UHGV virus genome: UHGV-0231970
Length of the DNA: 21,313 nucleotides
Reading direction: 5' to 3' (one strand)
Source: a virus
A program made the translations under genes and the position numbers. Below the pieces are notes generated by a model. It searched no databases. It was given only the letters and a program-made list of their open reading frames with translations, and had not been told where the DNA came from. This document shows, piece after piece, positions 1,570-21,313 of the stretch (position 1 is its first letter; every line of letters begins with the position of its first letter).

Positions 1570-2869
1570 TCTCCCGCATATTGCCAGTATGGCCTTTAAT
1601 GAGCCGCTGATGCTTGAACCCGCCTATGCGCGGGTTTTCTTTTGTGCGCTTGCAGGCCAGCTTGGGATCAGCCGCCTGACGGATGCGGTATCCGGCGACA
1701 GCCTGACTGCCGGAGAGGCACCCGCGGCGCTGGCGTTATCCGTTGATGATGACGGACCACGACAGGCCCGCAGTTATCAGGTCATGAACGGCATCGCCGT
1801 GCTGCCGGTGTCCGGCACGCTGGTCAGTCGGACGCGAGCGCTGCAGCCGTATTCGGGGATGACCGGTTACAACGGCATTATCGCCCGTCTGCAACAGGCT
1901 ACCAGCGACCCGATGGTGGACGGCATTCTGCTCGATATGGATACGCCAGGCGGGATGGTGGCAGGGGCATTTGACTGCGCTGACATCATCGCCCGTATGC
2001 GTGACATAAAGCCGGTATGGGCGCTGGCCAACGACATGAACTGCAGTGCAGGTCAGTTGCTTGCCAGCGCCGCCTCCCGACGTCTGGTCACGCAGACCGC
2101 CCGGACAGGCTCCATCGGCGTCATGATGGCTCACAGTAATTACGGTGCTGCGCTGGAGAAACAGGGCGTGGAAATCACGCTGATTTACAGCGGCAGCCAT
2201 AAGGTGGATGGCAACCCCTACAGCCATCTACCGGATGATGTCCGGGAAACACTGCAGTCCCGGATGGATGCAACCCGCCGGATGTTTGCACAGAAGGTGT
2301 CGGCATATACCGGCCTGTCCGTGCAGGCTGTGCTGGATACCGAGGCTGCAGTGTACAGCGGTCAGGAGGCCATTGATGCCGGACTGGCTGATGAACTTGT
2401 TAACAGTACCGATGCGATCACCGTCATGCGTGATGCACTGGATGCACGTAAATCCCGTCTCTCAGGAGGGCGAATGACCAAAGAGACTCAATCAACAACT
2501 GTTTCAGCCACTGCTTCGCAGGCTGACGTTACTGGCGTGGTGCAAGCGACGGAGGGCGAGAACGCCAGCGCTGCGCAGCCGGACGTGAACGCGCAGATCA
2601 CCGCAGCGGTTGCGGCAGAAAACAGTCGCATTATGGGGATCCTCAACTGTGAGGAGGCTCACGGACGCGAAGAACAGGCACGCGTGCTGGCCGAAACCCC
2701 CGGTATGACCGTGGAAACGGCCCGCCGCATTCTGGCAGTTGCACCACAGAGTGCACAGGCGCGCAGTGACACTGCGCTGGATCGTCTGATGCAGGGGGCA
2801 CCGGCACCGCTGGCTGCAGGTAACCCGGCATCTGATGCCGTTAACGATTTGCTGAACACACCAGTGTAA
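1550..2869 (+). CDS. C: Prohead protease / minor capsid protein C (S49 ClpP-like family)
   Basis: ORF 1415..2869 contains the lambda gpC sequence starting at GTG 1550 (MTAELRNLPHIASMAF...). Overlaps the B 3' end by 20 nt. Internal-start choice by homology, 439 codons. Confidence 0.88.
   Translation: MTAELRNLPHIASMAFNEPLMLEPAYARVFFCALAGQLGISRLTDAVSGDSLTAGEAPAALALSVDDDGPRQARSYQVMNGIAVLPVSGTLVSRTRALQPYSGMTGYNGIIARLQQATSDPMVDGILLDMDTPGGMVAGAFDCADIIARMRDIKPVWALANDMNCSAGQLLASAASRRLVTQTARTGSIGVMMAHSNYGAALEKQGVEITLIYSGSHKVDGNPYSHLPDDVRETLQSRMDATRRMFAQKVSAYTGLSVQAVLDTEAAVYSGQEAIDAGLADELVNSTDAITVMRDALDARKSRLSGGRMTKETQSTTVSATASQADVTGVVQATEGENASAAQPDVNAQITAAVAAENSRIMGILNCEEAHGREEQARVLAETPGMTVETARRILAVAPQSAQARSDTALDRLMQGAPAPLAAGNPASDAVNDLLNTPV
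2474..2869 (+). CDS. Nu3: Capsid scaffolding protein Nu3, nested in-frame in the 3' third of C
   Basis: Internal ATG 2474 in the C frame, preceded by AGGAGGG (2464-2470); product MTKETQSTTVSATASQ... matches lambda Nu3 from recall and shares its stop with C. Confidence 0.8.
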   Translation: MTKETQSTTVSATASQADVTGVVQATEGENASAAQPDVNAQITAAVAAENSRIMGILNCEEAHGREEQARVLAETPGMTVETARRILAVAPQSAQARSDTALDRLMQGAPAPLAAGNPASDAVNDLLNTPV

Positions 2870-2878
2870 GGGATGTTT

Positions 2879-3211
2879 ATGACGAGCAAAGAAACCTTTA
2901 CCCATTACCAGCCGCTGGGCAACAGTGACCCGGCTCATACCGCAACCGCGCCCGGCGGATTGAGTGCGAAAGCGCCTGCAATGACCCCGCTGATGCTGGA
3001 CACCTCCAGCCGTAAGCTGGTTGCGTGGGATGGCACCACCGACGGTGCTGCCGTTGGCATTCTTGCGGTTGCTGCTGACCAGACCAGCACCACGCTGACG
3101 TTCTACAAGTCCGGCACGTTCCGTTATGAGGATGTGCTCTGGCCGGAGGCTGCCAGCGACGAGACGAAAAAACGGACCGCGTTTGCCGGAACGGCAATCA
3201 GCATCGTTTAA
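2879..3211 (+). CDS. D: Head decoration protein gpD
   Basis: ORF 2873..3211; [27 protein letters not shown]... matches lambda gpD (110 aa) from ATG 2879. The ATG at 2873 is an alternative start two codons upstream. Confidence 0.9.
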
Positions 3212-3228
3212 CTTTACCCTTCATCACT

Positions 3229-3253
3229 AAAGGCCGCCTGTGCGGCTTTTTTT
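3229..3253 (+). terminator. Intrinsic-terminator-like hairpin between D and E (stem GCCGC / GCGGC, loop CTGT, followed by a T-run)
   Basis: Read directly: AAAGGCCGC-CTGT-GCGGCTTTTTTT. The A-tract and T-tract extend the stem, so it could act in either direction. Sits between D stop (3211) and E start (3267). Confidence 0.45.
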
Positions 3254-3266
3254 ACGGGATTTTTTT

Positions 3267-4292
3267 ATGTCGATGTACACAACCGCCCAGCTGCTGGCGG
3301 CAAATGAGCAGAAATTTAAGTTTGATCCGCTGTTTCTGCGTCTCTTTTTCCGTGAGAGCTATCCCTTCACTACGGAGAAAGTCTATCTCTCACAAATTCC
3401 GGGACTGGTAAACATGGCGCTGTACGTTTCGCCGATTGTTTCCGGTGAGGTTATCCGTTCCCGTGGCGGCTCCACCTCTGAATTTACGCCGGGATATGTC
3501 AAACCCAAGCATGAAGTGAATCCGCAGATGACCCTGCGTCGCCTGCCGGATGAAGATCCGCAGAATCTGGCGGACCCGGCTTACCGCCGCCGTCGCATCA
3601 TCCTGCAGAACATGCGTGACGAAGAGCTGGCCATTGCTCAGGTCGAAGAGATGCAGGCAGTTTCTGCCGTGCTCAAGGGCAAATACACCATGACCGGTGA
3701 AGCCTTCGATCCGGTTGAGGTGGATATGGGCCGCAGTGCGGCGAACAACATCACGCAGTCCGGCGGCACGGAGTGGAGCAAGCGTGACAAGTCCACGTAT
3801 GACCCGACCGACGATATCGAAGCCTACGCGCTGAACGCCAGCGGCGTGGTGAATATCATCGTGTTTGATCCGAAAGGCTGGGCGCTGTTCCGTTCCTTCA
3901 AAGCCGTCAAGGAGAAGCTGGATACCCGTCGCGGCTCTCATTCCGAGCTGGAGACAGCGGTGAAAGACCTGGGTAAAGCGGTGTCCTATAAGGGGATGTA
4001 TGGCGATGTGGCCATCGTCGTGTATTCCGGACAGTACGTGGAAAACGGCGTCAAAAAGAACTTCCTGCCGGACAACACGATGGTGCTGGGTAACACTCAT
4101 GCACGCGGTCTGCGCACCTATGGCTGTATTCAGGATGCGGATGCATTGAGTGAGGGTATTAATGCGTCTCCCCGTTATCCGAAAAACTGGAAGACATCCG
4201 GCGATCCGGCGCGAGAGTTCACCATGATTCAGTCAGCACCGCTGATGCTGCTGGCTGATCCTGATGAGTTCGTGTCCGTTCAACTGGCGTAA
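3267..4292 (+). CDS. E: Major capsid protein gpE
   Basis: ORF 3240..4292; MSMYTTAQLLAANEQKFKFDPLFLRLFF... matches lambda gpE (341 aa) from ATG 3267. The GTG at 3240 lies inside the upstream hairpin and is unlikely to be used. Confidence 0.95.
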   Translation: MSMYTTAQLLAANEQKFKFDPLFLRLFFRESYPFTTEKVYLSQIPGLVNMALYVSPIVSGEVIRSRGGSTSEFTPGYVKPKHEVNPQMTLRRLPDEDPQNLADPAYRRRRIILQNMRDEELAIAQVEEMQAVSAVLKGKYTMTGEAFDPVEVDMGRSAANNITQSGGTEWSKRDKSTYDPTDDIEAYALNASGVVNIIVFDPKGWALFRSFKAVKEKLDTRRGSHSELETAVKDLGKAVSYKGMYGDVAIVVYSGQYVENGVKKNFLPDNTMVLGNTHARGLRTYGCIQDADALSEGINASPRYPKNWKTSGDPAREFTMIQSAPLMLLADPDEFVSVQLA

Positions 4293-4294
4293 TC

Positions 4295-4312
4295 ATGGCC
4301 CTTCGGGGCCAT
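4295..4312 (+). promoter_or_regulatory. Perfect 7-bp stem with TTCG (UUCG) tetraloop immediately after the E stop codon
   Basis: Read directly: ATGGCCC-TTCG-GGGCCAT at 4295-4312, followed by TTTCTCTC. The ATG inside the stem (4295) is the upstream alternative start of the FI ORF. Confidence 0.4.
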
Positions 4313-4333
4313 TTTCTCTCTGTGGAGGAGTCC

Positions 4334-4729
4334 ATGACGAAAGATGAACTGATTGCCCGTCTTCAGGTGCTGGGTGAGCAACTGAACCGTGATGTCAGCC
4401 TGACGGGGACGAAAGAAGAACTGGCGCTCCGTGTGGCAGAGCTGGAAGAGGAGCTTGATGACACGGATGACGCTGCCGGTCAGGACACATCTGTCAGCCC
4501 GGAAAATGCGCTGACCGGACATGAAAATGAGGTGGTATCAGCGCAGCCGGATACCGTGACTGATACGGCTGATCTGGTCACGGTTGTGGCACTGGTGACG
4601 CTGCATACCGATGCACTTCACGCCACGCGGGATGAGGCTGTGGCATTTGTGCTGCCGGGAACGGCGTTCCGTGTCTCTGCCGGTGTGTCAGCTGAAATGA
4701 CAGAGCGCGGCCTGGCCAGAATGCAATAA
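4334..4729 (+). CDS. FI: DNA packaging / head assembly protein gpFI
   Basis: ORF 4295..4729; MTKDELIARLQVLGEQLNRDVSLTGTKEELALRVAELEEELDD... matches lambda FI from ATG 4334, preceded by GGAGGAG (4324-4330). Confidence 0.85.
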   Translation: MTKDELIARLQVLGEQLNRDVSLTGTKEELALRVAELEEELDDTDDAAGQDTSVSPENALTGHENEVVSAQPDTVTDTADLVTVVALVTLHTDALHATRDEAVAFVLPGTAFRVSAGVSAEMTERGLARMQ

Positions 4730-4740
4730 CGGGAGGCGCT

Positions 4741-5094
4741 GTGGCTGATTTCGATAACCTGTTCGATGCTGCCATTGCCCGCGCCGATGAAACGATACGC
4801 GGGTACATGGGAACGTCAGCCACCATGACATCCGGTGAGCAGTCCGGCGCAGTAATACGTGGTGTTTTTGATGACCCTGAAAATATCAGCTATGCCGGAC
4901 AGGGCGTGCGCGTTGAAGGCTCCAGCCCGTCCCTGTTTGTCCGGACTGATGATGTGCGGCAACTGCGGCGTGGAGACACGCTGACCATCGGTGAGGAAAA
5001 CTTCTGGATAGACCGGGTTTCGCCGGATGATGGTGGAAGCTGTCATCTCTGGCTTGGGCGGGGCGTACCGCCTGCCGTTAACCGTCGCCGCTGA
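4741..5094 (+). CDS. FII: Head-tail joining (head completion) protein gpFII
   Basis: ORF 4741..5094 (117 aa, GTG start) matches lambda FII over its full length (MADFDNLFDAAIARADETIRGYMGTS...). GGGAGG at 4731-4736. Confidence 0.9.
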   Translation: MADFDNLFDAAIARADETIRGYMGTSATMTSGEQSGAVIRGVFDDPENISYAGQGVRVEGSSPSLFVRTDDVRQLRRGDTLTIGEENFWIDRVSPDDGGSCHLWLGRGVPPAVNRRR

Positions 5095-5105
5095 AAGGGG
5101 GATGT

Positions 5106-5684
5106 ATGGCCATAAAAGGTCTTGAGCAGGCCGTTGAAAACCTCAGCCGTATCAGCAAAACGGCGGTGCCTGGTGCCGCCGCAATGGCCATTAACCGCGT
5201 TGCTTCATCCGCGATATCGCAGTCGGCGTCACAGGTTGCCCGTGAGACAAAGGTACGCCGGAAACTGGTAAAGGAAAGGGCCAGGCTGAAAAGGGCCACG
5301 GTCAAAAATCCGCAGGCCAGAATCAAAGTTAACCGGGGGGATTTGCCCGTAATAAAGCTGGGTAACGCGCGGATTGTCCTGTCCCGACGCAGGCGTCGTA
5401 AAAAGGGGCAGCGTTCAGCCCTGAAAGGTGGCGGCAGCGTGCTTGTGGTGGGAAACCGTCGTATTCCCGGCGCGTTTATTCAGCAACTGAAAAATGGCCG
5501 CTGGCATGTCATGCAGCGTGTGGCCGGGAAAAACCGTTACCCCATTGATGTGTTGAAAATCCCGATGGCGGTGCCGCTGACCACGGCGTTTAAACAGAAT
5601 ATTGAACGGATACGGCGTGAACGTCTTCCGAAAGAGCTGGGCTATGCGCTGCAGCATCAACTGAGAATGGTAATAAAGCGATGA
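5106..5684 (+). CDS. Z: Minor tail protein gpZ (tail completion)
   Basis: ORF 5106..5684, 192 aa, MAIKGLEQAVENLSRISKTAVPGAAAMAINRV... matches lambda Z. Stop TGA overlaps the U start as ATGA. Confidence 0.9.
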   Translation: MAIKGLEQAVENLSRISKTAVPGAAAMAINRVASSAISQSASQVARETKVRRKLVKERARLKRATVKNPQARIKVNRGDLPVIKLGNARIVLSRRRRRKKGQRSALKGGGSVLVVGNRRIPGAFIQQLKNGRWHVMQRVAGKNRYPIDVLKIPMAVPLTTAFKQNIERIRRERLPKELGYALQHQLRMVIKR

Positions 5685-6076
5685 AACATACTGAACTCCG
5701 TGCAGCCGTACTGGATGCACTGGAGAAGCATGACACCGGGGCGACGTTTTTTGATGGTCGCCCCGCTGTTTTTGATGAGGCGGATTTTCCGGCAGTTGCC
5801 GTTTATCTCACCGGCGCTGAATACACGGGCGAAGAGCTGGACAGCGATACCTGGCAGGCGGAGCTGCATATCGAAGTTTTCCTGCCTGCTCAGGTGCCGG
5901 ATTCAGAGCTGGATGAGTGGATGGAGTCCCGGATTTATCCGGTGATGAGTGATATCCCGGCACTGTCAGATTTGATCACCAGTATGGTGGCCAGCGGCTA
6001 TGACTACCGGCGCGACGATGATGCGGGCCTGTGGAGTTCAGCCGATCTGACTTATGTCATTACCTATGAAATGTGA
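5681..6076 (+). CDS. U: Tail tube terminator protein gpU
   Basis: ORF 5681..6076, 131 aa, [39 protein letters not shown]... matches lambda U. Confidence 0.9.
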
Positions 6077-6083
6077 GGACGCT

Positions 6084-6824
6084 ATGCCTGTACCAAATCC
6101 TGTAATGCCGGTGAAAGGTGCCGGGACCACCCTGTGGGTTTATAAGGGAAGCGGTGACCCTTATGCGAATCCGCTTTCAGACGTTGACTGGTCGCGTCTG
6201 GCAAAAGTTAAAGACCTGACGCCCGGCGAACTGACCGCTGAGTCCTATGACGACAGCTATCTCGATGATGAAGATGCAGACTGGACTGCGACCGGGCAGG
6301 GGCAGAAATCTGCCGGAGATACCAGCTTCACGCTGGCGTGGATGCCCGGAGAGCAGGGGCAGCAGGCGCTGCTGGCGTGGTTTAATGAAGGGGATACCCG
6401 AGCCTATAAAATCCGCTTCCCGAACGGCACGGTCGATGTGTTCCGCGGCTGGGTCAGCAGTATCGGTAAGGCGGTGACGGCGAAGGAAGTGATCACCCGC
6501 ACGGTGAAGGTCACCAATGTGGGCCGTCCGTCGATGGCAGAAGATCGCAGCACGGTGACGGCGACAACCGGCATGACTGTGACGCCTGCCAGCACCTCGG
6601 TGGTGAAAGGGCAGAGCACCACGCTGACCGTGGCATTCCAGCCGGAAGGCGCAACCGACAAGAGCTTCCGTGCGGTGTCTGCGGATAAAACAAAAGCCAC
6701 CGTGTCGGTCAGTGGTATGACCATCACCGTGAAAGGTGTTGCTGCAGGCAAGGTCAACATTCCGGTCGTATCCGGTAATGGTGAGTTTGCTGCGGTTGCA
6801 GAAATCAACGTCACCGCCAGTTAA
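6084..6824 (+). CDS. V: Major tail tube protein gpV (with C-terminal Ig-like domain)
   Basis: ORF 6054..6824; lambda gpV homology starts at ATG 6084 ([22 protein letters not shown]...), GAGGA at 6075-6079. 246 aa. Confidence 0.9.
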
Positions 6825-6839
6825 TCCGGAGAGTCAGCG

Positions 6840-7262
6840 ATGTTCCTGAAAACCGAATCATTTGAACATAACGGTGTGACCGTCACGCTTTCTGAACTGT
6901 CAGCCCTGCAGCGTATTGAGCATCTCGCCCTGATGAAACGACAGGCAGAACAGGCGGAGTCAGACAGCAACCGGAAGTTTACTGTGGAAGACGCCATCAG
7001 AACCGGCGCTTTTGTGGTGGCGATGTCCCTGTGGCATAACCATCCGCAGAAGACAAAGCTGCCTTCTATGAATGAAGCCGTTAAACAGATTGAGCAGGAA
7101 GTGCTTACCACCTGGCCCACGGAGGCAATTTCTCATGCTGAAAACGTGGTGTACCGGCTGTCCGGTATGTATGAGTTTGTGGTGAATGATGCTCCTGAAC
7201 AGACAGAGGACGCCGGGCCTGCAGAGCCTGTTTCTGCGGGAAAGTGTTCGATGGTGAGCTGA
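6840..7262 (+). CDS. G: Tail assembly chaperone gpG
   Basis: ORF 6840..7262, 140 aa, MFLKTESFEHNGVTVTLSELSALQRIEHLALMKRQ... matches lambda G. Confidence 0.9.
   Translation: MFLKTESFEHNGVTVTLSELSALQRIEHLALMKRQAEQAESDSNRKFTVEDAIRTGAFVVAMSLWHNHPQKTKLPSMNEAVKQIEQEVLTTWPTEAISHAENVVYRLSGMYEFVVNDAPEQTEDAGPAEPVSAGKCSMVS
7238..7244 (+). promoter_or_regulatory. Programmed -1 ribosomal frameshift slippery heptamer G GGA AAG (G to G-T)
   Basis: Read directly: GGGAAAG at 7238-7244 in the G frame (codons GCG GGA AAG). The -1 frame from 7244 is open through the T ORF to 7678. Confidence 0.8.
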
Positions 7263-7678
7263 GTTTTGCCCTGAAACTGGCGCGAGAGATGGGGCGACCC
7301 GACTGGCGTGCCATGCTTGCCGGGATGTCATCCACGGAGTATGCCGACTGGCACCGCTTTTACAGTACCCATTATTTTCATGATGTTCTGCTGGATATGC
7401 ACTTTTCCGGGCTGACGTACACCGTGCTCAGCCTGTTTTTCAGCGATCCGGATATGCATCCGCTGGATTTCAGTCTGCTTAACCGGCGCGAGGCTGACGA
7501 AGAGCCTGAAGATGATGTGCTGATGCAGAAAGCGGCAGGGCTTGCCGGAGGTGTCCGCTTTGGCCCGGACGGGAATGAAGTTATCCCCGCTTCCCCGGAT
7601 GTGGCGGACATGACGGAGGATGACGTAATGCTGATGACAGTATCAGAAGGGATCGCAGGAGGAGTCCGGTATGGCTGA
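7244..7678 (+). CDS. T: T segment of the tail assembly chaperone fusion gpGT (expressed as G residues 1-~135 + T via -1 frameshift)
   Basis: ORF 7244..7678 (FDGELSFALKLAREMGRPDWRAMLAGMSSTEYADW...) matches lambda gpT. It has no independent ATG or SD; the first codon is GTG at the slip site. Confidence 0.85.
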   Translation: MFDGELSFALKLAREMGRPDWRAMLAGMSSTEYADWHRFYSTHYFHDVLLDMHFSGLTYTVLSLFFSDPDMHPLDFSLLNRREADEEPEDDVLMQKAAGLAGGVRFGPDGNEVIPASPDVADMTEDDVMLMTVSEGIAGGVRYG

Positions 7679-10232
7679 ACCGGTAGGCGATCTGGTCGTT
7701 GATTTAAGTCTGGATGCGGCCAGATTTGACGAGCAGATGGCCAGAGTCAGGCGTCATTTTTCCGGTACGGAAACTGATGCGAAAAAAACAGCGGCAGTCG
7801 TTGAACAGTCGCTGAGCCGACAGGCGCTGGCTGCACAGAAAGCGGGGATTTCCGTCGGGCAGTATAAAGCCGCCATGCGTATGCTGCCTGCACAGTTCAC
7901 CGACGTGGCCACGCAGCTTGCAGGCGGGCAAAGCCCGTGGCTGATCCTGCTGCAACAGGGGGGTCAGGTGAAGGACTCCTTCGGCGGGATGATCCCCATG
8001 TTCCGGGGGCTTGCCGGTGCGATCACCCTGCCGATGGTGGGGGCCACCTCGCTGGCGGTGGCGACCGGTGCGCTGGCGTATGCCTGGTATCAGGGCAACT
8101 CAACCCTGTCCGATTTCAACAAAACGCTGGTCCTTTCCGGCAATCAGGCCGGGCTGACGGCAGATCGTATGCTGGTCCTGTCCAGAGCCGGGCAGGCGGC
8201 AGGGCTGACGTTTAACCAGACCAGCGAGTCACTCAGTGCACTGGTTAAGGCGGGGGTAAGTGGTGAGGCTCAGATTGCGTCCATCAGCCAGAGTGTGGCG
8301 CGTTTCTCTTCTGCATCCGGTGTGGAGGTGGACAAGGTCGCTGAAGCCTTCGGGAAGCTGACCACTGACCCGACGTCGGGGCTGACGGCGATGGCGCGCC
8401 AGTTCCATAACGTGACGGCGGAGCAGATTGCGTATGTTGCTCAGTTGCAGCGTTCCGGCGATGAAGCCGGGGCATTGCAGGCGGCGAACGAAGCCGCAAC
8501 GAAAGGGTTTGATGACCAGACCCGCCGCCTGAAAGAGAACATGGGCACGCTGGAGACCTGGGCAGACAGGACAGCGCGGGCATTCAAATCCATGTGGGAT
8601 GCGGTGCTGGATATTGGTCGTCCTGATACCGCGCAGGAGATGCTGATTAAGGCAGAGGCTGCGTTTAAGAAAGCAGACGACATCTGGAATCTGCGCAAGG
8701 ATGATTATTTTGTTAACGATGAAGCGCGGGCGCGTTACTGGGATGATCGTGAAAAGGCCCGTCTTGCGCTTGAAGCCGCCCGAAAGAAGGCTGAGCAGCA
8801 GACTCAACAGGACAAAAATGCGCAGCAGCAGAGCGATACCGAAGCGTCACGGCTGAAATATACCGAAGAGGCGCAGAAGGCTTACGAACGGCTGCAGACG
8901 CCGCTGGAGAAATATACCGCCCGTCAGGAAGAACTGAACAAGGCACTGAAAGACGGGAAAATCCTGCAGGCGGATTACAACACGCTGATGGCGGCGGCGA
9001 AAAAGGATTATGAAGCGACGCTGAAAAAGCCGAAACAGTCCGGCGTGAAGGTGTCTGCGGGCGATCGTCAGGAAGACAGTGCTCATGCTGCCCTGCTGAC
9101 GCTTCAGGCAGAACTCCGGACGCTGGAGAAGCATGCCGGAGCGAATGAGAAAATCAGCCAGCAGCGCCGGGATTTGTGGAAGGCGGAGAGTCAGTTCGCG
9201 GTACTGGAGGAGGCGGCGCAACGTCGCCAGCTGTCTGCACAGGAGAAATCCCTGCTGGCGCATAAAGATGAGACGCTGGAGTACAAACGCCAGCTGGCTG
9301 CACTTGGCGACAAGGTTACGTATCAGGAGCGCCTGAACGCGCTGGCGCAGCAGGCGGATAAATTCGCACAGCAGCAACGGGCAAAACGGGCCGCCATTGA
9401 TGCGAAAAGCCGGGGGCTGACTGACCGGCAGGCAGAACGGGAAGCCACGGAACAGCTCCTGAAGGAACAGTATGGCGATAATCCGCTGGCGCTGAATAAC
9501 GTCATGTCAGAGCAGAAAAAGACCTGGGCGGCTGAAGACCAGCTTCGCGGGAGCTGGATGGCAGGCCTGAAGTCCGGCTGGAGTGAGTGGGAAGAGAGCG
9601 CCACGGACAGTATGTCGCAGGTTAAAAGTGCAGCCACGCAGACCTTTGATGGTATTGCACAGAATATGGCGGCGATGCTGACCGGCAGTGAGCAGAACTG
9701 GCGCAGCTTCACCCGTTCCGTGCTGTCCATGATGACAGAAATTCTGCTTAAGCAGGCAATGGTGGGGATTGTCGGGAGTATCGGCAGCGCCATTGGCGGT
9801 GCTGCCAGTGGTGGAGCATCCGCGTCAGGCGGTACAGCCATTCAGGCCGCTGCGGCGAAATTCCATTTTGCGACCGGGGGATTTACGGGAACCGGCGGCA
9901 AATATGAGCCAGCGGGGATTGTTCACCGTGGTGAATTTGTCTTCACGAAGGAGGCAACCAGCCGGATTGGTGTCGGCAACCTGTACCGCCTGATGCGGGG
10001 CTATGCGGAAGGTGGTTATGTGGGCGGTGCCGGAAGTCCGGCGCAGATGCGGCGGGCTGAAGGCATTAATTTTAATCAGAACAATCACGTGGTGATTCAG
10101 AACGACGGTACGAATGGTCTGCCAGGTCCACAGATGATGAAGGCAGTGTATGACATGGCCCGCAAGGGTGCCCGTGATGAAATTCAGACACAGATGCGTG
10201 ATGGTGGCCTGTTCTCCGGAGGTGGACGATGA
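7671..10232 (+). CDS. H: Tail tape measure protein gpH
   Basis: ORF 7671..10232, 853 aa, MAEPVGDLVVDLSLDAARFDEQMARVRRHF... matches lambda H. GGAGGAG upstream; overlaps the T 3' end by 8 nt. Confidence 0.95.
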   Translation: MAEPVGDLVVDLSLDAARFDEQMARVRRHFSGTETDAKKTAAVVEQSLSRQALAAQKAGISVGQYKAAMRMLPAQFTDVATQLAGGQSPWLILLQQGGQVKDSFGGMIPMFRGLAGAITLPMVGATSLAVATGALAYAWYQGNSTLSDFNKTLVLSGNQAGLTADRMLVLSRAGQAAGLTFNQTSESLSALVKAGVSGEAQIASISQSVARFSSASGVEVDKVAEAFGKLTTDPTSGLTAMARQFHNVTAEQIAYVAQLQRSGDEAGALQAANEAATKGFDDQTRRLKENMGTLETWADRTARAFKSMWDAVLDIGRPDTAQEMLIKAEAAFKKADDIWNLRKDDYFVNDEARARYWDDREKARLALEAARKKAEQQTQQDKNAQQQSDTEASRLKYTEEAQKAYERLQTPLEKYTARQEELNKALKDGKILQADYNTLMAAAKKDYEATLKKPKQSGVKVSAGDRQEDSAHAALLTLQAELRTLEKHAGANEKISQQRRDLWKAESQFAVLEEAAQRRQLSAQEKSLLAHKDETLEYKRQLAALGDKVTYQERLNALAQQADKFAQQQRAKRAAIDAKSRGLTDRQAEREATEQLLKEQYGDNPLALNNVMSEQKKTWAAEDQLRGSWMAGLKSGWSEWEESATDSMSQVKSAATQTFDGIAQNMAAMLTGSEQNWRSFTRSVLSMMTEILLKQAMVGIVGSIGSAIGGAASGGASASGGTAIQAAAAKFHFATGGFTGTGGKYEPAGIVHRGEFVFTKEATSRIGVGNLYRLMRGYAEGGYVGGAGSPAQMRRAEGINFNQNNHVVIQNDGTNGLPGPQMMKAVYDMARKGARDEIQTQMRDGGLFSGGGR

Positions 10233-10558
10233 AAACCTTCCGCTGGAAAGTGAAACCCGGTATGGATGTGGCTTCGGCCCCTTCTGTAAGAAAGGTGCGC
10301 TTTGGTGATGGCTATTCCCAGCGAGCGCCTGCCGGGCTGAATGCCAACCTGAAAACGTACAGCGTGACGCTTTCTGTCCCCCGTGAGGAGGCCACGGTAC
10401 TGGAGTCGTTTCTGGAAGAGCACGGGGGCTGGAAAGCCTTTCTGTGGACGCCGCCTTATGAGTGGCGGCAGATAAAGGTGACCTGCGCAAAATGGTCGTC
10501 GCGGGTCAGTATGCTGCGTGTTGAGTTCAGCGCAGAGTTTGAACAGGTGGTGAACTGA
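10229..10558 (+). CDS. M: Minor tail protein gpM
   Basis: ORF 10229..10558, 109 aa, MKTFRWKVKPGMDVASAPSVRKVRFGDGYSQRAPAG... matches lambda M. ATGA overlap with the H stop. Confidence 0.9.
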   Translation: MKTFRWKVKPGMDVASAPSVRKVRFGDGYSQRAPAGLNANLKTYSVTLSVPREEATVLESFLEEHGGWKAFLWTPPYEWRQIKVTCAKWSSRVSMLRVEFSAEFEQVVN

Positions 10559-11256
10559 TGCAGGATATCCGGCAGGAAACACTGAATGAATGCACCCGTG
10601 CGGAGCAGTCGGCCAGCGTGGTGCTCTGGGAAATCGACCTGACAGAGGTCGGTGGAGAACGTTATTTTTTCTGTAATGAGCTGAACGAAAAAGGTGAGCC
10701 GGTCACCTGGCAGGGGCGACAGTATCAGCCGTATCCCATTCAGGGGAGTGGTTTTGAACTGAATGGCAAAGGCACCAGTACGCGCCCCACGCTGACGGTT
10801 TCTAACCTGTACGGTATGGTCACCGGGATGGCGGAAGATCTGCAGAGTCTGGTCGGCGGAACGGTGGTCCGGCGTAAGGTTTACGCCCGTTTTCTGGATG
10901 CGGTGAACTTCGTTAACGGAAACAGTGACGCCGATCCGGAGCAGGAGGTGATCAGCCGCTGGCGCATCGAGCAGTGCAGCGAACTGAGCGCGGTGAGTGC
11001 CTCCTTTGTACTGTCCACGCCGACGGAAACAGATGGCGCTGTTTTTCCGGGACGTATCATGCTGGCCAACACCTGCACCTGGACCTATCGCGGCGATGAG
11101 TGCGGTTATCACGGTCCGGCGGTCGCGGATGAATATGACCAGACAACGTCCGATATCACGAAGGATAAATGCAGCAAATGCCTGAGTGGCTGTAAGTTTC
11201 GCAATAACGTCGGCAACTTTGGCGGCTTCCTTTCCATTAACAAACTTTCGCAGTAA
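10558..11256 (+). CDS. L: Minor tail (tail tip) protein gpL
   Basis: ORF 10558..11256, 232 aa, MQDIRQETLNECTRAEQSASVVLWEIDLTEVGGERYFFCNE... matches lambda L. Start ATG overlaps the M stop (TGATG). Cys cluster near the C-terminus (C..C...C..C). Confidence 0.9.
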   Translation: MQDIRQETLNECTRAEQSASVVLWEIDLTEVGGERYFFCNELNEKGEPVTWQGRQYQPYPIQGSGFELNGKGTSTRPTLTVSNLYGMVTGMAEDLQSLVGGTVVRRKVYARFLDAVNFVNGNSDADPEQEVISRWRIEQCSELSAVSASFVLSTPTETDGAVFPGRIMLANTCTWTYRGDECGYHGPAVADEYDQTTSDITKDKCSKCLSGCKFRNNVGNFGGFLSINKLSQ

Positions 11257-11261
11257 ATCCC

Positions 11262-12005
11262 ATGACACAGACAGAATCAGCGATTCTGGCGCACGCCCAG
11301 CGATGTGCGCCAGCGGAGTCGTGCGGCTTCGTGGTGAGAACGCCGGAGGGGGAAAGATATTTTCCCTGCGTGAATATTTCCGGTGAGCCGGAGGATTATT
11401 TCCGGATGGCTCCGGAGGACTGGCTGCAGGCAGAAATGCAGGGTGAGATTGTGGCGCTGGTCCACAGCCACCCCGGTGGTCTGCCCTGGCTGAGTGAGGC
11501 TGACCGGCGGCTGCAGGTGCAGAGTGATTTGCCGTGGTTGCTGGTCTGCCGGGGGGCGATTCATAAGTTCCGCTGTGTGCCGCATCTCACCGGGCGGCGC
11601 TTTGAGCACGGGGTGACGGACTGTTACACGCTGTTCCGGGATGCTTATCATCTGGCGGGGATTGAGATGCCGAATTTTCATCGCGGGGATGACTGGTGGC
11701 GTCACGGCCAGAATCTCTATCTGGATAATCTGGAGGCCACAGGGCTGTATCAGGTGCCGTTGTCATCAGCACAACCGGGCGATGTGCTGCTGTGCTGTTT
11801 TGGTTCATCGGTGCCGAATCATGCCGCCATTTACTGCGGCGACGGTGAGCTGTTGCACCATATTCCTGAACAACTGAGCAAACGAGAGAGGTATACCGAC
11901 AAATGGCAGCGACGCACACACTCCCTCTGGCGTCACCGGGCATGGCACGCATCTGCCTTTACGGGGATTTACAACGATTTGGCCGCCGCATCGACCTTCG
12001 TGTGA
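11262..12005 (+). CDS. K: Tail tip assembly protein gpK (MPN/JAMM-like plus NlpC/P60-like peptidase domains)
   Basis: ORF 11262..12005 (247 aa) begins 6 nt after the L stop. Lambda K homology throughout; HSHPGG (JAMM-like HxH) and a Cys-His pair (GVTDCYTLF ... NHAAIY). An internal ATG at 11406 would give the 199-aa form; the 3' end overlaps I by 103 nt. Confidence 0.8.
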   Translation: MTQTESAILAHAQRCAPAESCGFVVRTPEGERYFPCVNISGEPEDYFRMAPEDWLQAEMQGEIVALVHSHPGGLPWLSEADRRLQVQSDLPWLLVCRGAIHKFRCVPHLTGRRFEHGVTDCYTLFRDAYHLAGIEMPNFHRGDDWWRHGQNLYLDNLEATGLYQVPLSSAQPGDVLLCCFGSSVPNHAAIYCGDGELLHHIPEQLSKRERYTDKWQRRTHSLWRHRAWHASAFTGIYNDLAAASTFV

Positions 12006-12574
12006 AAACGGGGGCTGAAGCCATCCGGGCACTGGCCACACAGCTCCCGGCGTTTCGTCAGAAACTGAGCGACGGCTGGTATCAGGTACGGATTGCCGGG
12101 CGGGACGTCAGCACGTCCGGGTTAACGGCGCAGTTACATGAGACTCTGCCTGATGGCGCTGTGATTCATATTGTTCCCAGAGTCGCCGGGGCCAAGTCAG
12201 GTGGCGTATTCCAGATTGTCCTGGGGGCTGCCGCCATTGCCGGATCATTCTTTACCGCCGGAGCCACCCTTGCAGCATGGGGGGCAGCCATTGGGGCCGG
12301 TGGTATGACCGGCATCCTGTTTTCTCTCGGTGCCAGTATGGTACTTGGTGGTGTGGCGCAGATGCTGGCACCGAAAGCCAGGACGCCCACGGCAGCAAGT
12401 ACAGATAACGGCAAACAGAACACCTATTTCTCCTCACTGGATAACATGGTTGCCCAGGGCAATGTTCTGCCCGTTCTGTACGGTGAAATGCGCGTGGGGT
12501 CGCGGGTGGTCTCTCAGGAGATCAGCACGGCAGACGAAGGGGATGGTGGTCAGGTTGTGGTGATTGGTCGCTGA
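11903..12574 (+). CDS. I: Tail tip assembly protein gpI
   Basis: ORF 11903..12574, 223 aa, MAATHTLPLASPGMARICLYGDLQRFGRRIDLRVKTGAEAIRAL... matches lambda I. Gly/Ala-rich hydrophobic C-terminal half. Confidence 0.9.
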   Translation: MAATHTLPLASPGMARICLYGDLQRFGRRIDLRVKTGAEAIRALATQLPAFRQKLSDGWYQVRIAGRDVSTSGLTAQLHETLPDGAVIHIVPRVAGAKSGGVFQIVLGAAAIAGSFFTAGATLAAWGAAIGAGGMTGILFSLGASMVLGGVAQMLAPKARTPTAASTDNGKQNTYFSSLDNMVAQGNVLPVLYGEMRVGSRVVSQEISTADEGDGGQVVVIGR

Positions 12575-12591
12575 TGAAAAACGTTTATGTG

Positions 12592-12612
12592 AAACCGCCT
12601 GCGGGCGGTTTT
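12592..12612 (+). terminator. Hairpin between I and J (AAACCGCC-TGCG-GGCGGTTT followed by T)
   Basis: Read directly; 8-bp GC-rich stem, 4-nt loop, short T-run (TTTTGTCGTTT). J RBS GAGGA and ATG 12634 follow. Confidence 0.4.
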
Positions 12613-12630
12613 GTCGTTTATGGAGCGTGA

Positions 12631-16032
<3,402 letters not shown>

Positions 16033-16050
16033 ATTTTATAACTCAGAACG

Positions 16051-16074
16051 GGCGTCAGAAATGACGCCTTTTTT
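16051..16074 (+). terminator. Rho-independent terminator after J (GGCGTCA-GAAA-TGACGCC + TTTTTT)
   Basis: Read directly: perfect 7-bp stem, GAAA loop, six T immediately 3'; 19 nt after the J stop. Confidence 0.7.
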
Positions 16075-16098
16075 ATTGCAGAAAAGCGAGAGGTAATT

Positions 16099-16698
16099 AT
16101 GCGTAAACTTTATGCCGCCATTTTGTCCGCAGCCATTTGTCTGGCCGTATCAGGTGCGCCTGCATGGGCGTCTGAACATCAGTCCACGCTGAGCGCGGGG
16201 TATCTTCATGCCTCGACGAACGTTCCCGGCAGCGATGATCTGAACGGGATTAACGTGAAATACCGTTATGAGTTTACGGACACACTGGGGATGGTGACGT
16301 CATTCAGCTATGCAGGAGACAAGAATCGCCAGCTGACTCATTACAGCGATACCCGCTGGCATGAAGATTCCGTTCGTAACCGCTGGTTCAGCGTAATGGC
16401 GGGGCCGTCTGTGCGCGTGAATGAATGGTTCAGCGCGTATGCGATGGCGGGTGTGGCTTACAGCCGTGTGTCGACTTTCTCCGGGGATTATCTCCGCGTA
16501 ACTGACAACAAGGGGAAAACGCACGATGTGCTGACCGGAAGTGATGACGGTCGCCACAGCAACACGTCTCTGGCGTGGGGAGCTGGCGTGCAGTTTAACC
16601 CGACCGAATCCGTGGCCATTGATGTCGCTTATGAAGGCTCCGGCAGTGGTGACTGGCGCACTGACGGGTTCATCGTGGGTGTTGGTTATAAATTCTGA
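16099..16698 (+). CDS. lom: Lom-family outer membrane protein (Ail/Lom/PagC beta-barrel family; lysogenic-conversion moron)
   Basis: ORF 16099..16698, 199 aa. Signal-peptide-like N-terminus (MRKLYAAILSAAICLAVSGAPAWA). The C-terminal half (...MAGPSVRVNEWFSAYAMAGVAYSRV... AYEGSGSGDWRTDGFIVGVGYKF) matches lambda Lom including the terminal aromatic residue. RBS AGAGG upstream. Confidence 0.85.
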   Translation: MRKLYAAILSAAICLAVSGAPAWASEHQSTLSAGYLHASTNVPGSDDLNGINVKYRYEFTDTLGMVTSFSYAGDKNRQLTHYSDTRWHEDSVRNRWFSVMAGPSVRVNEWFSAYAMAGVAYSRVSTFSGDYLRVTDNKGKTHDVLTGSDDGRHSNTSLAWGAGVQFNPTESVAIDVAYEGSGSGDWRTDGFIVGVGYKF

Positions 16699-16724
16699 TT
16701 AGCCAGGTAACACAGTGTTATGAC

Positions 16725-16751
16725 AGCCCGCCGGTTCAGGCGGGCTTTTTT
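16725..16751 (+). terminator. Rho-independent terminator after lom (AGCCCGCC-GGTTCA-GGCGGGCT + TTTTTT)
   Basis: Read directly: 8-bp GC stem, 6-nt loop, T-run 16746-16750. Confidence 0.7.
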
Positions 16752-16762
16752 GTGGGGTGAAT

Positions 16763-19700
16763 ATGGCAGTAAAAATTTCAGGTGTACTGAAAGACGGCAC
16801 AGGAAAACCGGTACAGAACTGCACAATCCAGCTGAAAGCAAAACGTAACAGTACCACGGTGGTGGTGAACACGCTGGCATCTGAAAATCTGGATGAAGCC
16901 GGGCGTTACAGTATGGACGTTGAGTACGGTCAGTACAGCGTTATTCTGTTGGTGGAAGGATTCCCGCCGTCACATGCCGGGACCATCACAGTGTATGAAG
17001 ATTCCCGACCCGGTACGCTGAATGATTTTCTCGGTGCCATGACGGAGGATGATGCCCGTCCGGAGGCACTGCGCCGTTTTGAGCTGATGGTGGAAGAGGT
17101 GGCGCGTAACGCGTCCGTGGTGGCACAGAACACGGCAGCCGCGAAGAAGTCAGCCAGTGATGCCAGCACATCAGCCCGTGAGGCGGCAACCCATGCGACT
17201 GATGCTGCAGGCTCAGCACGCGCAGCCAGCACGTCAGCCGGACAGGCCGCGTCGTCGGCTCAGTCAGCGTCTTCCAGCGCAGGAACGGCATCAACAAAGG
17301 CCACTGAAGCCTCAAAAAGTGCTGCCGCTGCAGAGTCCTCAAAAAGCGCGGCGGCTACCAGTGCCGGTGCGGCGAAAACGTCAGAAACGAATGCGGCAGC
17401 GTCAGAACAATCAGCCGCCACTTCTGCATCCACCGCGACCACGAAAGCGTCAGAAGCTGCCACCTCAGCCAGGGATGCGTCGGCTTCAAAAGAGGCGGCA
17501 AAATCATCAGAAACGAACGCATCATCAAGCGCCAGTAGTGCAGCTTCCTCGGCAACGGCGGCAGGAAATTCCGCGAAGGCGGCAAAGACGTCTGAGACAA
17601 ACGCCAGGTCCTCTGAAACGGCAGCAGCACAGAGTGCCTCCGCAGCAGCAGGCTCAAAAACAGCGGCTGTGTCGTCGGCCAGTGCCGCGTCAACAAGTGC
17701 CGGGCAGGCCTCAGCCAGTGCCACCGCCGCCGGAAAATCGGCAGAAAGCGCCGCATCATCCGCTTCAACAGCCACAACGAAGGCTGGCGAAGCCACTGAA
17801 CAGGCCACTGCAGCAGCGAGGGCTGCTTCCGCAGCGAAGACATCCGAAACGAACGCGAAAGCGTCGGAAACCAGCGCAGAATCCTCAAAAACGGCTGCCG
17901 CATCGTCCGCCAGTTCGGCGGCGTCATCGGCATCATCGGCGTCTGCTTCAAAAGATGAGGCGACCAGACAGGCGTCAGCAGCGAGGGGCAGCGCCACGAC
18001 GGCATCCACGAAGGCGACAGAGGCTGCTGGCAGTGCGGCAGCGGCAGCACAGAGCAAAAGTACGGCAGAATCCGCAGCAACTCGCGCTGAGACAGCGGCA
18101 AAACGGGCAGAGGATATTGCATCCGCCGTGGCGCTTGAGGATGCGAGCACGACGAAAAAGGGGATAGTACAGCTCAGCAGTGCGACTAACAGCACGTCTG
18201 AAACGCTGGCGGCAACGCCAAAGGCAGTAAAAGCAGCCTATGACAATGCAGAGAAACGTCTGCAGAAAGACCAGAACGGTGCTGATATTCCCGACAAGGA
18301 CCGCTTCCTGAGTAACATTAATGTTTACAGCAAAGGTGAAGTGGATCAGAAAAAGGGGATGCGATACGTTGTGGTAAATGCCCCGGCGGGTGTCCAGGAA
18401 GGTAAATATTATCCGTTAGTGATAAAAAGGAATGACAGCCATCGGGCATCCCGCGTTGTCATTTCAACGCCAAGTCGCTTAGCTAATCACAGAATGAATA
18501 ATTGTGAGTTTAATGGTTTTGTTTGCGCAGGCGGCTGGACGGACCGGGGTAGCTATGCCTGTGGTATGTTCTGGGCTTATTCATCATCGGAACGCGCTAT
18601 TCATTCCATTCTGATGAGTAATAAAGGCGATACCGTAGACAGCGTATTCTATATAGAAGGTGGGGCATTTCCCGTAGAGGTCTTTTTAGAAGAAGGTCTC
18701 TCCGTTACTGCACCTGCTTCTGATTATATTGTTGCTGAAACGACTTATAAATTTGGCGCAACTGATCCTTATTCTGAATCAGTTGCGGTAAATTTAATTT
18801 TAGATTTTAAACAAGGTAATGGATTTTATAGTTCGTATCCTGTTTTGAGTAAGTCAGACATTAGCGGGAATAAGATTTACGCTAATGATGAAGTTATTGT
18901 CCGTAGTCAGAACGCGTTAAGGATGATTGCAGGTGATTACGGTGTCATATGGCGAAATGATGGAGCAAATACTTACTTGCTCATGACTGATAAAGGCGAC
19001 CAGTACGGTGGCTGGAACGGTCTTCGACCATTTGCAGTAAATAACGCAACAGGTGAAGTGACGATCAATACACCACTTAATTCTCCTAAGGGGATTAAGG
19101 GAAATTCTTATACAGCTACGAAACTTCAGACAGCAATAAAAATATCTGGTGTTTCGTTTGATGGTTCTACTGATATCACTTTAACCGCTGCGCATGTTGC
19201 TGCTTTTGCCAGAAGAGCAACGGATACGTATGCCGATGCGGATGGGGGCGTTCCCTGGAATGCCGAATCAGGCGCTTACAATGTCACTCGCTCTGGCGAC
19301 AGCTATATTCTGGTTAACTTCTATACCGGAGTCGGAAGTTGCCGGACCTTGCAGATGAAGGCGCATTACAGAAATGGTGGTCTGTTCTACCGTTCTTCAA
19401 GAGATGGCTATGGTTTTGAGGAAGACTGGGCAGAAGTTTATACCTCGAAAAATCTTCCACCAGAAAGCTACCCAGTCGGTGCACCAATCCCGTGGCCATC
19501 AGATACCGTTCCGTCTGGCTATGCCCTGATGCAGGGGCAGACTTTTGACAAATCTGCTTACCCGAAACTTGCAGCCGCTTATCCGTCAGGCGTGATCCCT
19601 GATATGCGTGGCTGGACGATTAAGGGCAAGCCCACCAGTGATCGAGCCGTATTGTCTCAGGAACAGGACGGCATTAAATCACACACCCACAGCGCCAGCG

Positions 19701-20140
19701 TATCCAGTACGGATTTGGGGACGAAAACCACATCGTCGTTTGATTACGGCACTAAATCCACGAATAACACTGGTGCGCATACCCATAGTGTTAGCGGTAC
19801 GGCTGCTTCAGCCGGTGCACATACCCATTCGATGACATTTGTTTCAGGTGGTTCCAGTGGTGCTCCGGGAAGTGGATCACCTGATTATTCTAAATACAGT
19901 GTTAACACTTCTTCTGCAGGCGCTCATACGCACTCTGTATCGGGTACTGCTGCAAGCGCAGGTGCACACGCACATACTGTCGGTATTGGTGCTCATACGC
20001 ACTCCGTTGCGATTGGTTCACATGGACATACGTCTTCAACGAGATGCCACGATGCCTCATCACTGTTGAAAACAGCCACGAAGCCTGCCGGAATATCTGG
20101 CGGTGCAATATCGATACTGTTTGCTGGCAGACCTGTATGA
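16763..20140 (+). CDS. stf: Side tail fibre protein Stf (long mosaic form, with a non-canonical C-terminal 35 residues)
   Basis: ORF 16757..20140 (the GTG at 16757 gives the ORF-track M; homology-consistent ATG at 16763, [26 protein letters not shown]...). Lambda Stf-like N-terminus, Ala/Ser/Thr-rich repeats, AT-rich central segment, seven His-x-His boxes, then an ending not found in lambda Stf. Confidence 0.85.
19954..20031 (+). repeat. Left copy of a perfect 78-bp inverted repeat (inside the stf coding sequence, His-box region)
   Basis: Direct comparison: 19954-20031 is the exact reverse complement of 20320-20397; identity stops at both outer ends (19953 and 20398 do not pair). Confidence 0.9.
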
Positions 20141-20319
20141 GGCGGAATATATGCGTCAACTTCACCAATAAATTCATTAGTTCCGGCCAGCAGATTATAA
20201 ATTTTTATGGTCCGTGGTTGTTCATTCATTCTGAATGCCATTATGCAAGCCTCACAATATAGTTAAATGCGATGTTTTTGACGGTGTTTTCCGCGTTACC
20301 AGCAGCGTTAACGGTGATG
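20032..20319 (-). other. 288-bp segment between the inverted repeats, carrying the canonical stf 3' end (...[25 protein letters not shown]) and tfa codons 1-~69 on the - strand
   Basis: - strand ORFs 20241..20453 and 19993..20241: the first ends ...[31 protein letters not shown] (lambda Stf C-terminus); the second begins [27 protein letters not shown]... (lambda Tfa N-terminus). They are joined by a TAATG stop/start overlap at 20239-20243. Confidence 0.85.
20035..20241 (-). pseudogene. tfa: tfa' : N-terminal fragment of the tail fibre assembly protein Tfa (about 69 homologous codons, then runs into the antisense of the left repeat)
   Basis: ORF 19993..20241 (-): [70 protein letters not shown] matches the lambda Tfa N-terminus; the remaining 12 residues ([12 protein letters not shown]) are antisense of the stf His-box codons. 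No Tfa C-terminal part anywhere in the window. Confidence 0.8.
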
Positions 20320-20397
20320 GTATGTCCATGTGAACCAATCGCAACGGAGTGCGTATGAGCACCAATACCGACAGTATGTGCGTGTGCACCTGCGCTT
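20320..20397 (+). repeat. Right copy of the perfect 78-bp inverted repeat
   Basis: Exact reverse complement of 19954-20031; on the - strand it encodes [25 protein letters not shown] in the stf frame. Confidence 0.9.
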
Positions 20398-20529
20398 CCG
20401 TGTCTTATCTTCATCATCAACAACGATAAAAATTTTCCCGGTATAGCCAGCACGACGCAACGTCCGGTAAGTCAGAACTTTGTCCGGTCGCCCGTGAGTC
20501 AGAATAAAGGCGCAAAAATCATCACGCAT
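20398..20529 (-). pseudogene. 5' fragment (about 42 codons) of an unidentified gene, truncated at the right inverted-repeat boundary
   Basis: - strand ATG at 20529-20527 preceded by GGAGGAGGA, overlapping the upstream stop as ATGCGTGA. Product [42 protein letters not shown], then the frame enters the repeat and becomes Cys/Arg-rich nonsense (ORF 20308..20550). The pattern I-x-T-x-x-R-P-D ... I-x-V-V-D-D is reminiscent of a GT-A-fold glycosyltransferase N-terminus, but this is weak. Confidence 0.45.
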
Positions 20530-21313
20530 ATTCCTCCTCCTCACCACCATGCATGATCTCCACCATGCGCTGCGTCATCCGGACAAATCCATTTTCAATA
20601 GCCTGCTGATAATCAATGATCACCAGCGCCGACTCCTCGAAAAAACACTGAATTTCAGAGGGGGCGTGAGCGTAATAGTCCGCAATTCTGCTGAAATTAA
20701 ACACCGTGTGACGTTCTGCCGCACACAGGAGGAATTTCTCAATATCAGGCTCAAGGGACGCCGAACGTATCCGGCTGATCAGCTCCTGAGTTTTCGTATC
20801 GTCGTACAGTTCACTGATATCCGGTTTACCGCCCGACGGCTCATAAACAGGCGTATCAATTTTCGTCGTATACGGCTCCTCCTCATTTCCTGTACCGGGC
20901 AAAACATCCGTCAACAGTTCATCAATTTCTGTCGGGATGAAGCCTGTCAGGGAGACATCAAAATCAGCATTGATTAGGTCCGACAGCTCCATCCGCAACA
21001 GATCTTCATCCCAGCCAGCATTCATCGGCAGGCGATTATCTGCCAGGCGGTACGCCTTTTTCTGCTCATCCGTCAGGCCAGACAGAACAATGACCGGAAC
21101 AGAATCCATTTTGAGCATTTCAGCCGCCATAACACGACCGTGACCCGCAATAATTTCGCCCTTTTCGTCAATCAGCACCGGATTAGTCCAGCCGAATTGC
21201 TTAATACTTTCTACCAGTTGTGCCACCTGCTCAGGGCTGTGCGTCCTGGCGTTGTGCGCATACGGTGACAATTCTTGTAATGGGCGATAGACTATCTTTA
21301 ATTTCTCGCTCAT
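20522..21313 (-). CDS. ParB N-terminal-domain (ParB/sulfiredoxin-like nuclease fold) protein; start codon lies exactly at the window edge
   Basis: ORF 20522..21313 (-), 263 aa. Motifs typical of ParB-like domains: LSPYAHNARTH, IAGHGRVMAA (GxxR box), AYRLADNRL. Acidic C-terminal tail (GGEEEEYA) whose codons form the SD of the next gene. Cannot tell whether the protein extends beyond the window. Confidence 0.7.
   Translation of the reverse strand: MSEKLKIVYRPLQELSPYAHNARTHSPEQVAQLVESIKQFGWTNPVLIDEKGEIIAGHGRVMAAEMLKMDSVPVIVLSGLTDEQKKAYRLADNRLPMNAGWDEDLLRMELSDLINADFDVSLTGFIPTEIDELLTDVLPGTGNEEEPYTTKIDTPVYEPSGGKPDISELYDDTKTQELISRIRSASLEPDIEKFLLCAAERHTVFNFSRIADYYAHAPSEIQCFFEESALVIIDYQQAIENGFVRMTQRMVEIMHGGEEEEYA

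Follow-up and report, generated by a model that had tools for sequence, protein, structure and literature searches.

The window analysed here is the whole stretch of 21,313 nucleotides, and our attention was directed at its right-hand part, where the side-fibre gene stf meets the chaperone gene tfa (Table 1). The stf ORF encodes 1125 residues when read from the ATG at 16763 and 1127 residues when read from the GTG at 16757, and its Pfam matches (PF08400, 1e-70; PF21446, 4e-30; PF07484, 8e-12) are to the N-terminal prophage fibre, trimerisation and collar domains. The HxH His boxes of the needle are present up to residue 1090, and in a protein comparison the encoded residues 1-1090, which end in GSHGHT, are all identical to those of the canonical Stf of the closest relative (contig L017). 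This canonical protein has 1115 residues, the last 25 of which are replaced in the window by a tail of 35 residues that results from reading tfa codons 36-70 in antisense; in GSHGHT, the final Thr codon (ACG here versus ACC in the canonical gene) already takes its third base from the tfa-derived DNA. The original prediction had stf running on past GSHGHT into 35 antisense tfa codons, and translation of the ORF against the L017 Stf confirms this. The conserved C-terminal end of Stf (…HGHTITVN…) is not part of the fibre reading frame but is encoded on the minus strand. Further upstream, an Ala/Ser/Thr-rich region of stf (window 17150-18200) consists of at least eight degenerate repeat units; the long ORFs of 311, 336 and 255 aa that arise there in the other frames, including those of the opposite strand, are spurious. 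It is inside this region, at window position 17262, that Logan contigs from related strains break off.

Table 1. Features around the stf-tfa junction of the window. R is the repeat common to the two parental loci; R78 and R366 are positions 78 and 366 within it.
Feature	Coordinates	Strand	Basis and remarks
stf	16763 (ATG) or 16757 (GTG) to 20140	+	ORF; Pfam phage_tail_N, Gp34_trimer, Collar, Phage_fiber
Antisense-tfa tail of Stf	20033..20140	+	35 codons and stop, SSTRCH…GRPV
tfa codons 1-70 (N-terminal module only)	20032..20241	-	Translation, tblastn; without Pfam domain
Left arm of 78-nt inverted repeat	19954..20031	+	Last His boxes of stf; equals R positions 1-78
Right arm of 78-nt inverted repeat	20320..20397	-	His-box fragment of Rac-remnant stf'
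Canonical Stf C-terminus, 25 codons and stop	20241..20319	-	On the strand opposite to stf; together with the tfa fragment makes up the spacer
Unique blunt junction	20031..20032	.	R78 joined to the reverse complement of R366; without microhomology
TAGT glycosyltransferase gene start (PF20691)	20398..20529	-	First 44 codons (132 nt; intact protein 310 aa), fused to stf'
ParB_N-domain protein, 263 aa, complete	20522..21313	-	Rac-type prophages, normally after lysis genes and trkG

On the opposite strand, tfa is reduced to its N-terminal module. The remnant is identical to full-length Tfa at 70/70 residues (tblastn E=9e-46), whereas residues 71-194 have no tblastn match anywhere in the window. The frame of the remnant stays open to 19993 through 12 junk codons of antisense His-box DNA, which gives a product of 82 aa. 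While Caudo_TAP (PF02413) spans residues 72-191 in full-length Tfa relatives (3e-45 and 2e-42), the 82-aa product has no Pfam match, the whole Caudo_TAP domain being missing. An earlier estimate of about 69 minus-strand codons with the C-terminal part absent from the window is borne out by tblastn on both the truncation and the absence, and the count is corrected to 70. The start of tfa overlaps the stf stop (TAATG, 20239-20243), as in the usual stf-tfa arrangement. Tfa helps Stf trimers assemble and belongs to the virion (PMC7291167); the structure paper on Ur-lambda (PMC12617516) gives no information on Tfa or the Stf C-terminus.

The consequence of the exchanged C-terminus for the fibre can be judged by comparison with structurally characterised tips. 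The tip of lambda Stf consists of a collar, a six-stranded needle and an OmpC-binding head of the gp37-type fold (PMC7291167). Over its last 215 residues, the canonical Stf can be aligned to 2XGF, the crystal structure of the receptor-binding tip of T4 gp37 (E=1.5e-88), as far as the final residue, and the end of this alignment, …HGHTITVN(S/A)(T/A)GN(T/A)…, is nearly invariant between the two. As judged from this alignment, the descending strand of an interwoven gp37-type trimer normally ends in the very 25 residues that are replaced here, and these are nearly invariant. Without this conserved tip end, the encoded Stf is very probably non-functional and would not be expected to fold into a working side fibre. 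Because the 25 missing residues are the end of the gp37-type tip fold, Stf should be unable to form the tip with any chaperone. The original prediction of a non-functional fibre unless a chaperone is supplied in trans is thus reasonable in its first part; rescue in trans would not be expected, since the native gp37-type tip end is gone.

Absent from the original prediction is a perfect 78-nt inverted repeat, the arms of which enclose a 288-bp spacer (20032-20319); also absent from it are the native Stf end that this spacer carries on the minus strand and the origin of all DNA right of 20031 from another prophage. Flipping this spacer in silico restores the exact canonical Stf of 1115 residues; because the repeat arms are identical, tfa remains truncated after the flip as well.

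To the right of the inverted repeat, the window continues in antisense into TAGT' and parB. The TAGT'|stf' fusion is an older natural deletion with 2 nt of microhomology (AA) that occurs in at least four E. coli assemblies, and a 23-mer across the TAGT'(132 nt)|stf' junction is identical in L001, L021, L022 and L023. Through this deletion a Rac-type prophage lost its entire head and tail module; the intact gene for TAGT (TET-associated glycosyltransferase) can be seen in L004 (10785-11717). An ORF spanning the fusion was found on three contigs, all of them Rac remnants of the form ParB-TAGT'-stf': two of the three extend over the complete tfaR (191 aa) as far as ynaE-uspF-ompN, one of them (L021) with a pinR call, and the third (L023) ends inside tfaR. 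Strain cM2a has the same ParB-TAGT'-stf' Rac-remnant structure; there, the ParB gene appears in two pieces, a ynaK pseudogene and a 'transcriptional regulator'. The exact ParB protein lies in a Rac-type context (lysis genes-trkG-ParB) in 10/10 places read, followed in nine of these ten by TAGT (310 aa) and terminase. In the assembly collection, 18,595 blocks list an identical ParB protein, and the ParB_N and TAGT pair between trkG and the terminase genes (L004-L013) looks like a DNA-modification module.

Both sides of the window can be assigned to loci that are canonical elsewhere, and both loci occur in the same ENA assembly, ERZ28657829 of BioSample SAMN14445740. Window 2634-20031 is 100.000% identical to scaffold_1827 (L017), a lambda-like prophage of the DLP12-site type, in which a canonical stf (1115 aa) is followed by an intact tfa (194 aa) straight through the breakpoint position. 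Window 20032-21313 (1282 nt) matches scaffold_3522 (L021) in reverse complement with 100.000% identity, and this scaffold reads TAGT'-stf'-tfaR (191 aa, intact)-pin, again straight through the breakpoint position. In a near-identical isolate (GCA_040040235.1; 1 and 8 mismatches), each locus lies on a contig of its own and no trace of the join is present, namely a canonical stf-tfa on L015 and the Rac-remnant locus on L023, the contig that ends inside tfaR. As for the left-hand side, the exact J protein is present on nine public contigs, all of which, if long enough, have the 1115-aa stf, the 194-aa tfa and a methyltransferase. The sole J contig that reaches further (L014) has appY/ompT/envY next, which places it at the DLP12 site, and the complete genome of CT29 has the same arrangement with 99.4% identity over the stf segment searched. 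Likewise, window 20032-21313 is colinear with the Rac remnants of cM2a, ERZ28657829, GCA_012997085 and GCA_040040235 at 99.4-100% identity. The parental-type loci together carry two intact tfa genes. Hence, the scrambled stf-tfa is not a property of the phage type: 100% identical prophage DNA elsewhere has the canonical stf-tfa, and the tfaR of the Rac remnant is intact. The two intact parental Tfa proteins (194 aa, L017 17477-18061; 191 aa, L021 7999-8574) show no difference over residues 1-117 and diverge mostly at the very end of the chain; in a strain with both canonical loci, the two chaperones are thus nearly interchangeable.

The two parental loci have in common a repeat, R, of 503 identical bp (or of 719 bp at 97.8%), which starts at the TAGT'|stf' deletion junction and covers the last His boxes, the stf end and the first 115-117 tfa codons. 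Expressed in coordinates of R, the window reads unique stf, R positions 1-78, the reverse complement of R positions 1-366, and antisense TAGT' and ParB, and therein only one junction is novel. Left of it stands the …J-lom-stf late operon of the lambda-like prophage at the DLP12 site; right of it, inverted, stands the Rac remnant ParB-TAGT'-stf' (last His boxes and C-terminus)-tfaR codons 1-70. The single R78/R366 join therefore accounts at once for the inverted repeat (78 nt) and its spacer (288 bp) as well as for the antisense end of Stf and the truncation of tfa.

No common or complementary bases flank the junction 20031|20032, for which reason a microhomology-mediated template switch or fold-back priming was rejected; a nearby 6-nt inverted pair, ACCGTT/AACGGT, would give another junction than the one observed. 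The breakpoints do resemble one another when read in gene orientation (…ATAC|CATCAC… in stf and …AGAC|CATCGG… in tfa; window 20026-20037, L017 17393-17404, L021 8203-8214), with the 6 nt AC|CATC in common (p ~0.002). As a result of this common context, the join creates ACGT, and the reciprocal join would create the 8-nt palindrome GATGCATC. The AC|CATC coincidence is explained by neither the artefact model nor that of a large inversion between the two loci, and we know of no nuclease specific for AC|CATC. A further observation concerns the length of the left arm: the left piece ends 78 nt into R, which is k-1 for k = 79 and thus the point at which a de Bruijn-graph contig would stop on entering the repeat. 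This offset is a hint at a contig end in the left piece and nothing beyond that. A corresponding signature at R366, the end of the right-hand piece, was not found: tfa is colinear across codon 70/71 in 4,385/4,415 E. coli records, so that no common allele boundary lies there. Two abutted de Bruijn-graph contig ends, which would be expected to branch at codon 70/71, accordingly remain no more than a hint.

We then asked of the public record whether the join recurs. Junction 20031|20032 was found in none of 5,426 complete E. coli genomes, and in none of the GTDB representatives (one genome per species), IMG/VR, the JGI metagenomes or 50,697 phage records. The predicted reciprocal junction, …CCCCGATG|CATCACCG…, also written GTCATAAACCGTTTTACCCCGATG|CATCACCGTTAACGCTGCTGGTAA, and the junction predicted for a flip in place were likewise found neither in the 5,426 complete E. 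coli genomes nor in JGI metagenome contigs. At the protein level, neither the chimeric Stf nor the 82-aa truncated Tfa is on record, and a search of 5.8 billion protein clusters gave no match to the 35-aa tail, which is therefore not a recurring Stf terminus. The original prediction had named a tail conserved and recurring at the Stf terminus of related phages as the observation that would overturn it; no such match exists among these clusters, and an alternative, recurring Stf terminus was rejected on the same grounds. Because the junction was seen in no other sequence, it represents a one-off breakage or an assembly error and not a new biological device.

With the anatomy of the join, its two parental loci and its uniqueness established, the question is how one non-homologous head-to-head join of two separate prophage loci could have come about at 20031|20032. 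In our assessment it was probably made in sequencing or assembly, which we consider likelier than a cellular origin. By one route, a single copy of R would have given rise to a fold-back or chimeric junction, read forward as far as R78 and resumed on the opposite strand from R366, at a distance of 288 nt, whereupon the assembly path would have left through the shared repeat into the other locus; alternatively, two sequence pieces may have been abutted without a spacer. An artefact is favoured because an independent assembly, 100% identical on both sides of the join, has only the canonical structures, and a fold-back junction with its ends 288 nt apart in one copy of R needs fewer coincidences than the cellular route. 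If the source record stems from another isolate than sample ERZ28657829, as may be the case, this disagreement between assemblies is no evidence. Most assemblers are unable to make a junction that is present in no read, and therefore an artefact requires chimeric DNA or reads, or a concatenation without spacer. The competing view, a real private rearrangement, is a possibility that we hold to be doubtful but take seriously: an illegitimate inversion of ~0.85 Mb, or an equivalent inverted insertion, would have joined the DLP12-site stf to the Rac tfaR and pseudogenised both genes, and the reciprocal junction would carry an intact 194-aa tfa after the last 25 stf codons, severed from the late operon. 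The sequence is in fact internally clean, each of its sides is 100% identical to a real locus, and illegitimate junctions are natural in this region, as the TAGT'|stf' deletion in at least four assemblies attests; the identical AC|CATC context of both breakpoints could, moreover, indicate a sequence-dependent cut. Furthermore, the stf-tfa genes of Rac and Qin are documented lambdoid recombination partners, and under laboratory conditions phages can do without side fibres or even gain from their loss (PMC3945230; PMC7291167). Against this view stands the geometry of the two loci. The late genes of the DLP12-site and Rac prophages of K-12 lie in direct orientation, ~850 kb apart and within one replication arm. 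Homologous recombination between the two prophages is thereby ruled out as the source of the join, because the K-12 loci are direct repeats and the join is inverted, blunt and offset by 288 nt in R. What is left for a cellular origin is an inversion of ~0.85 Mb with both non-homologous ends in a 0.5-kb repeat, and that two random breaks 850 kb apart should both fall into this repeat is extremely unlikely. An 850-kb inversion inside one replication arm is also expected to be costly, neither junction occurs in any other genome searched, and the assembly with 100% identical DNA is canonical at both loci.

An inversion in place, confined to the 288-bp segment of the DLP12-site prophage between two AC|CATC motifs and followed by an exit of the assembler through R into the Rac remnant, would account for the 6-nt context, the blunt join and breakpoints 288 nt apart in one locus. 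As it requires an unusual cellular event plus an assembly mis-path, and as its predicted second junction, …GGTGATG|CATCGGGG…, is absent from the complete E. coli genomes and the JGI metagenome contigs, we consider it exceedingly improbable. The inverted repeat also invites the idea of a reversible switch, in which RecA-type recombination or a Pin-family invertase would flip the 288-bp cassette and thereby alternate between an Stf with a complete receptor-binding tip and one with a dead tail. A 78-bp repeat that is perfect and long enough for homologous recombination, the exact canonical Stf that results from the flip, the position of pinR next to tfaR in the parental Rac remnant and the fact that invertible fibre cassettes are a known theme all speak for such a switch. 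A genuine locus of the invertible type is present in another E. coli (L011 10785-16686; GCA_014527525.1), where Caudo_TAP genes and fibre-tip genes each occur twice, the former in opposed orientation, together with part of a resolvase gene; it lies beside the same ParB gene, from which a deletion leads straight into the J C-terminus, followed by lom. In the window, however, there is no ORF for an invertase or recombinase, and pinR occurs solely in the parental Rac remnant, past the stretch that the window lacks. A hix/gix core (AAACC-NN-GGTTT type; up to 2 mismatches) matches six times against 7.2 expected, none of them beyond position 14023 or near the repeat ends. Only one orientation encodes anything meaningful, tfa is truncated in both, and one 25-codon tip end with one truncated tfa leaves no second cassette; the repeats are by-products of the join and not conserved sites, and neither orientation of the arrangement occurs in the 5,426 E. 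coli genomes. A programmed switch is thus very unlikely, and a Pin/Gin-type invertible segment, for want of an invertase, a crossover-like core and a second cassette, was rejected. To speak of 'this orientation', as the original prediction did, implies a switch and is accordingly not warranted. RecA-mediated flipping at the 78-bp repeats is physically possible, but as an accident of the join and not as a device; that the join is real and its repeats flip by ordinary homologous recombination, so that an active and a cryptic prophage would have recombined into an invertase-independent on/off switch of the tip, has hardly any probability in our view.

Taken together, the feature is a private, derived chimeric junction that is most likely not biological and otherwise a product of ordinary prophage decay. 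Caution is advisable in annotation: the unusual C-terminus of Stf, the apparent lack of a chaperone and the striking inverted repeat can be traced to one private junction of two prophages, which should be annotated neither as a new fibre variant nor as an invertible element. Side fibres are dispensable for lambda, and laboratory lambda is without them (PMC7291167; PMC3945230); the loss of Stf would therefore not disable the phage, even if the join were real. In that event, the locus would add one more case of prophage tail-fibre decay and, as a rare non-homologous inversion between the DLP12-site and Rac prophages, would be of modest interest.

Compared with the lambda Stf-Tfa module, which is homologous to the T4 gp37 tip and the gp38/Tfa chaperone, the window has the same J-lom-stf order, the N-terminal fibre domain, Gp34_trimer, the collar, the HxH His boxes and the TAATG overlap of stf and tfa. 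It differs in that both the start of tfa and the final 25 residues of Stf are encoded on the opposite strand, that tfa ends at codon 70 before Caudo_TAP and that Stf ends in 35 unrelated residues. With deleted derivatives of the cryptic E. coli prophage Rac (trkG-ynaK…stfR-tfaR-pinR), window 20032-21313 is colinear, the TAGT'|stf' junction included; whereas in Rac remnants a tfaR of 191 aa is followed by pinR, the window tfaR is cut at codon 70 and abuts the stf of another prophage in opposite orientation. The Mu G/Gin, P1 C/Cin and e14 P/Pin switches also have inverted repeats in fibre genes around the fibre C-terminus and the chaperone start, and a pin gene is present in one of the parental loci; in contrast to these systems, the window has no invertase, no crossover-site consensus and no second functional cassette, but one chimeric join that does not recur. 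Finally, fold-back chimeras of amplification or library preparation usually have an overlap of a few bases, which the window junction lacks; in common with them and with repeat-induced misassemblies, it combines a strand reversal from a point a few hundred bases away, breakpoints in a repeat common to two loci and a junction private to one assembly.
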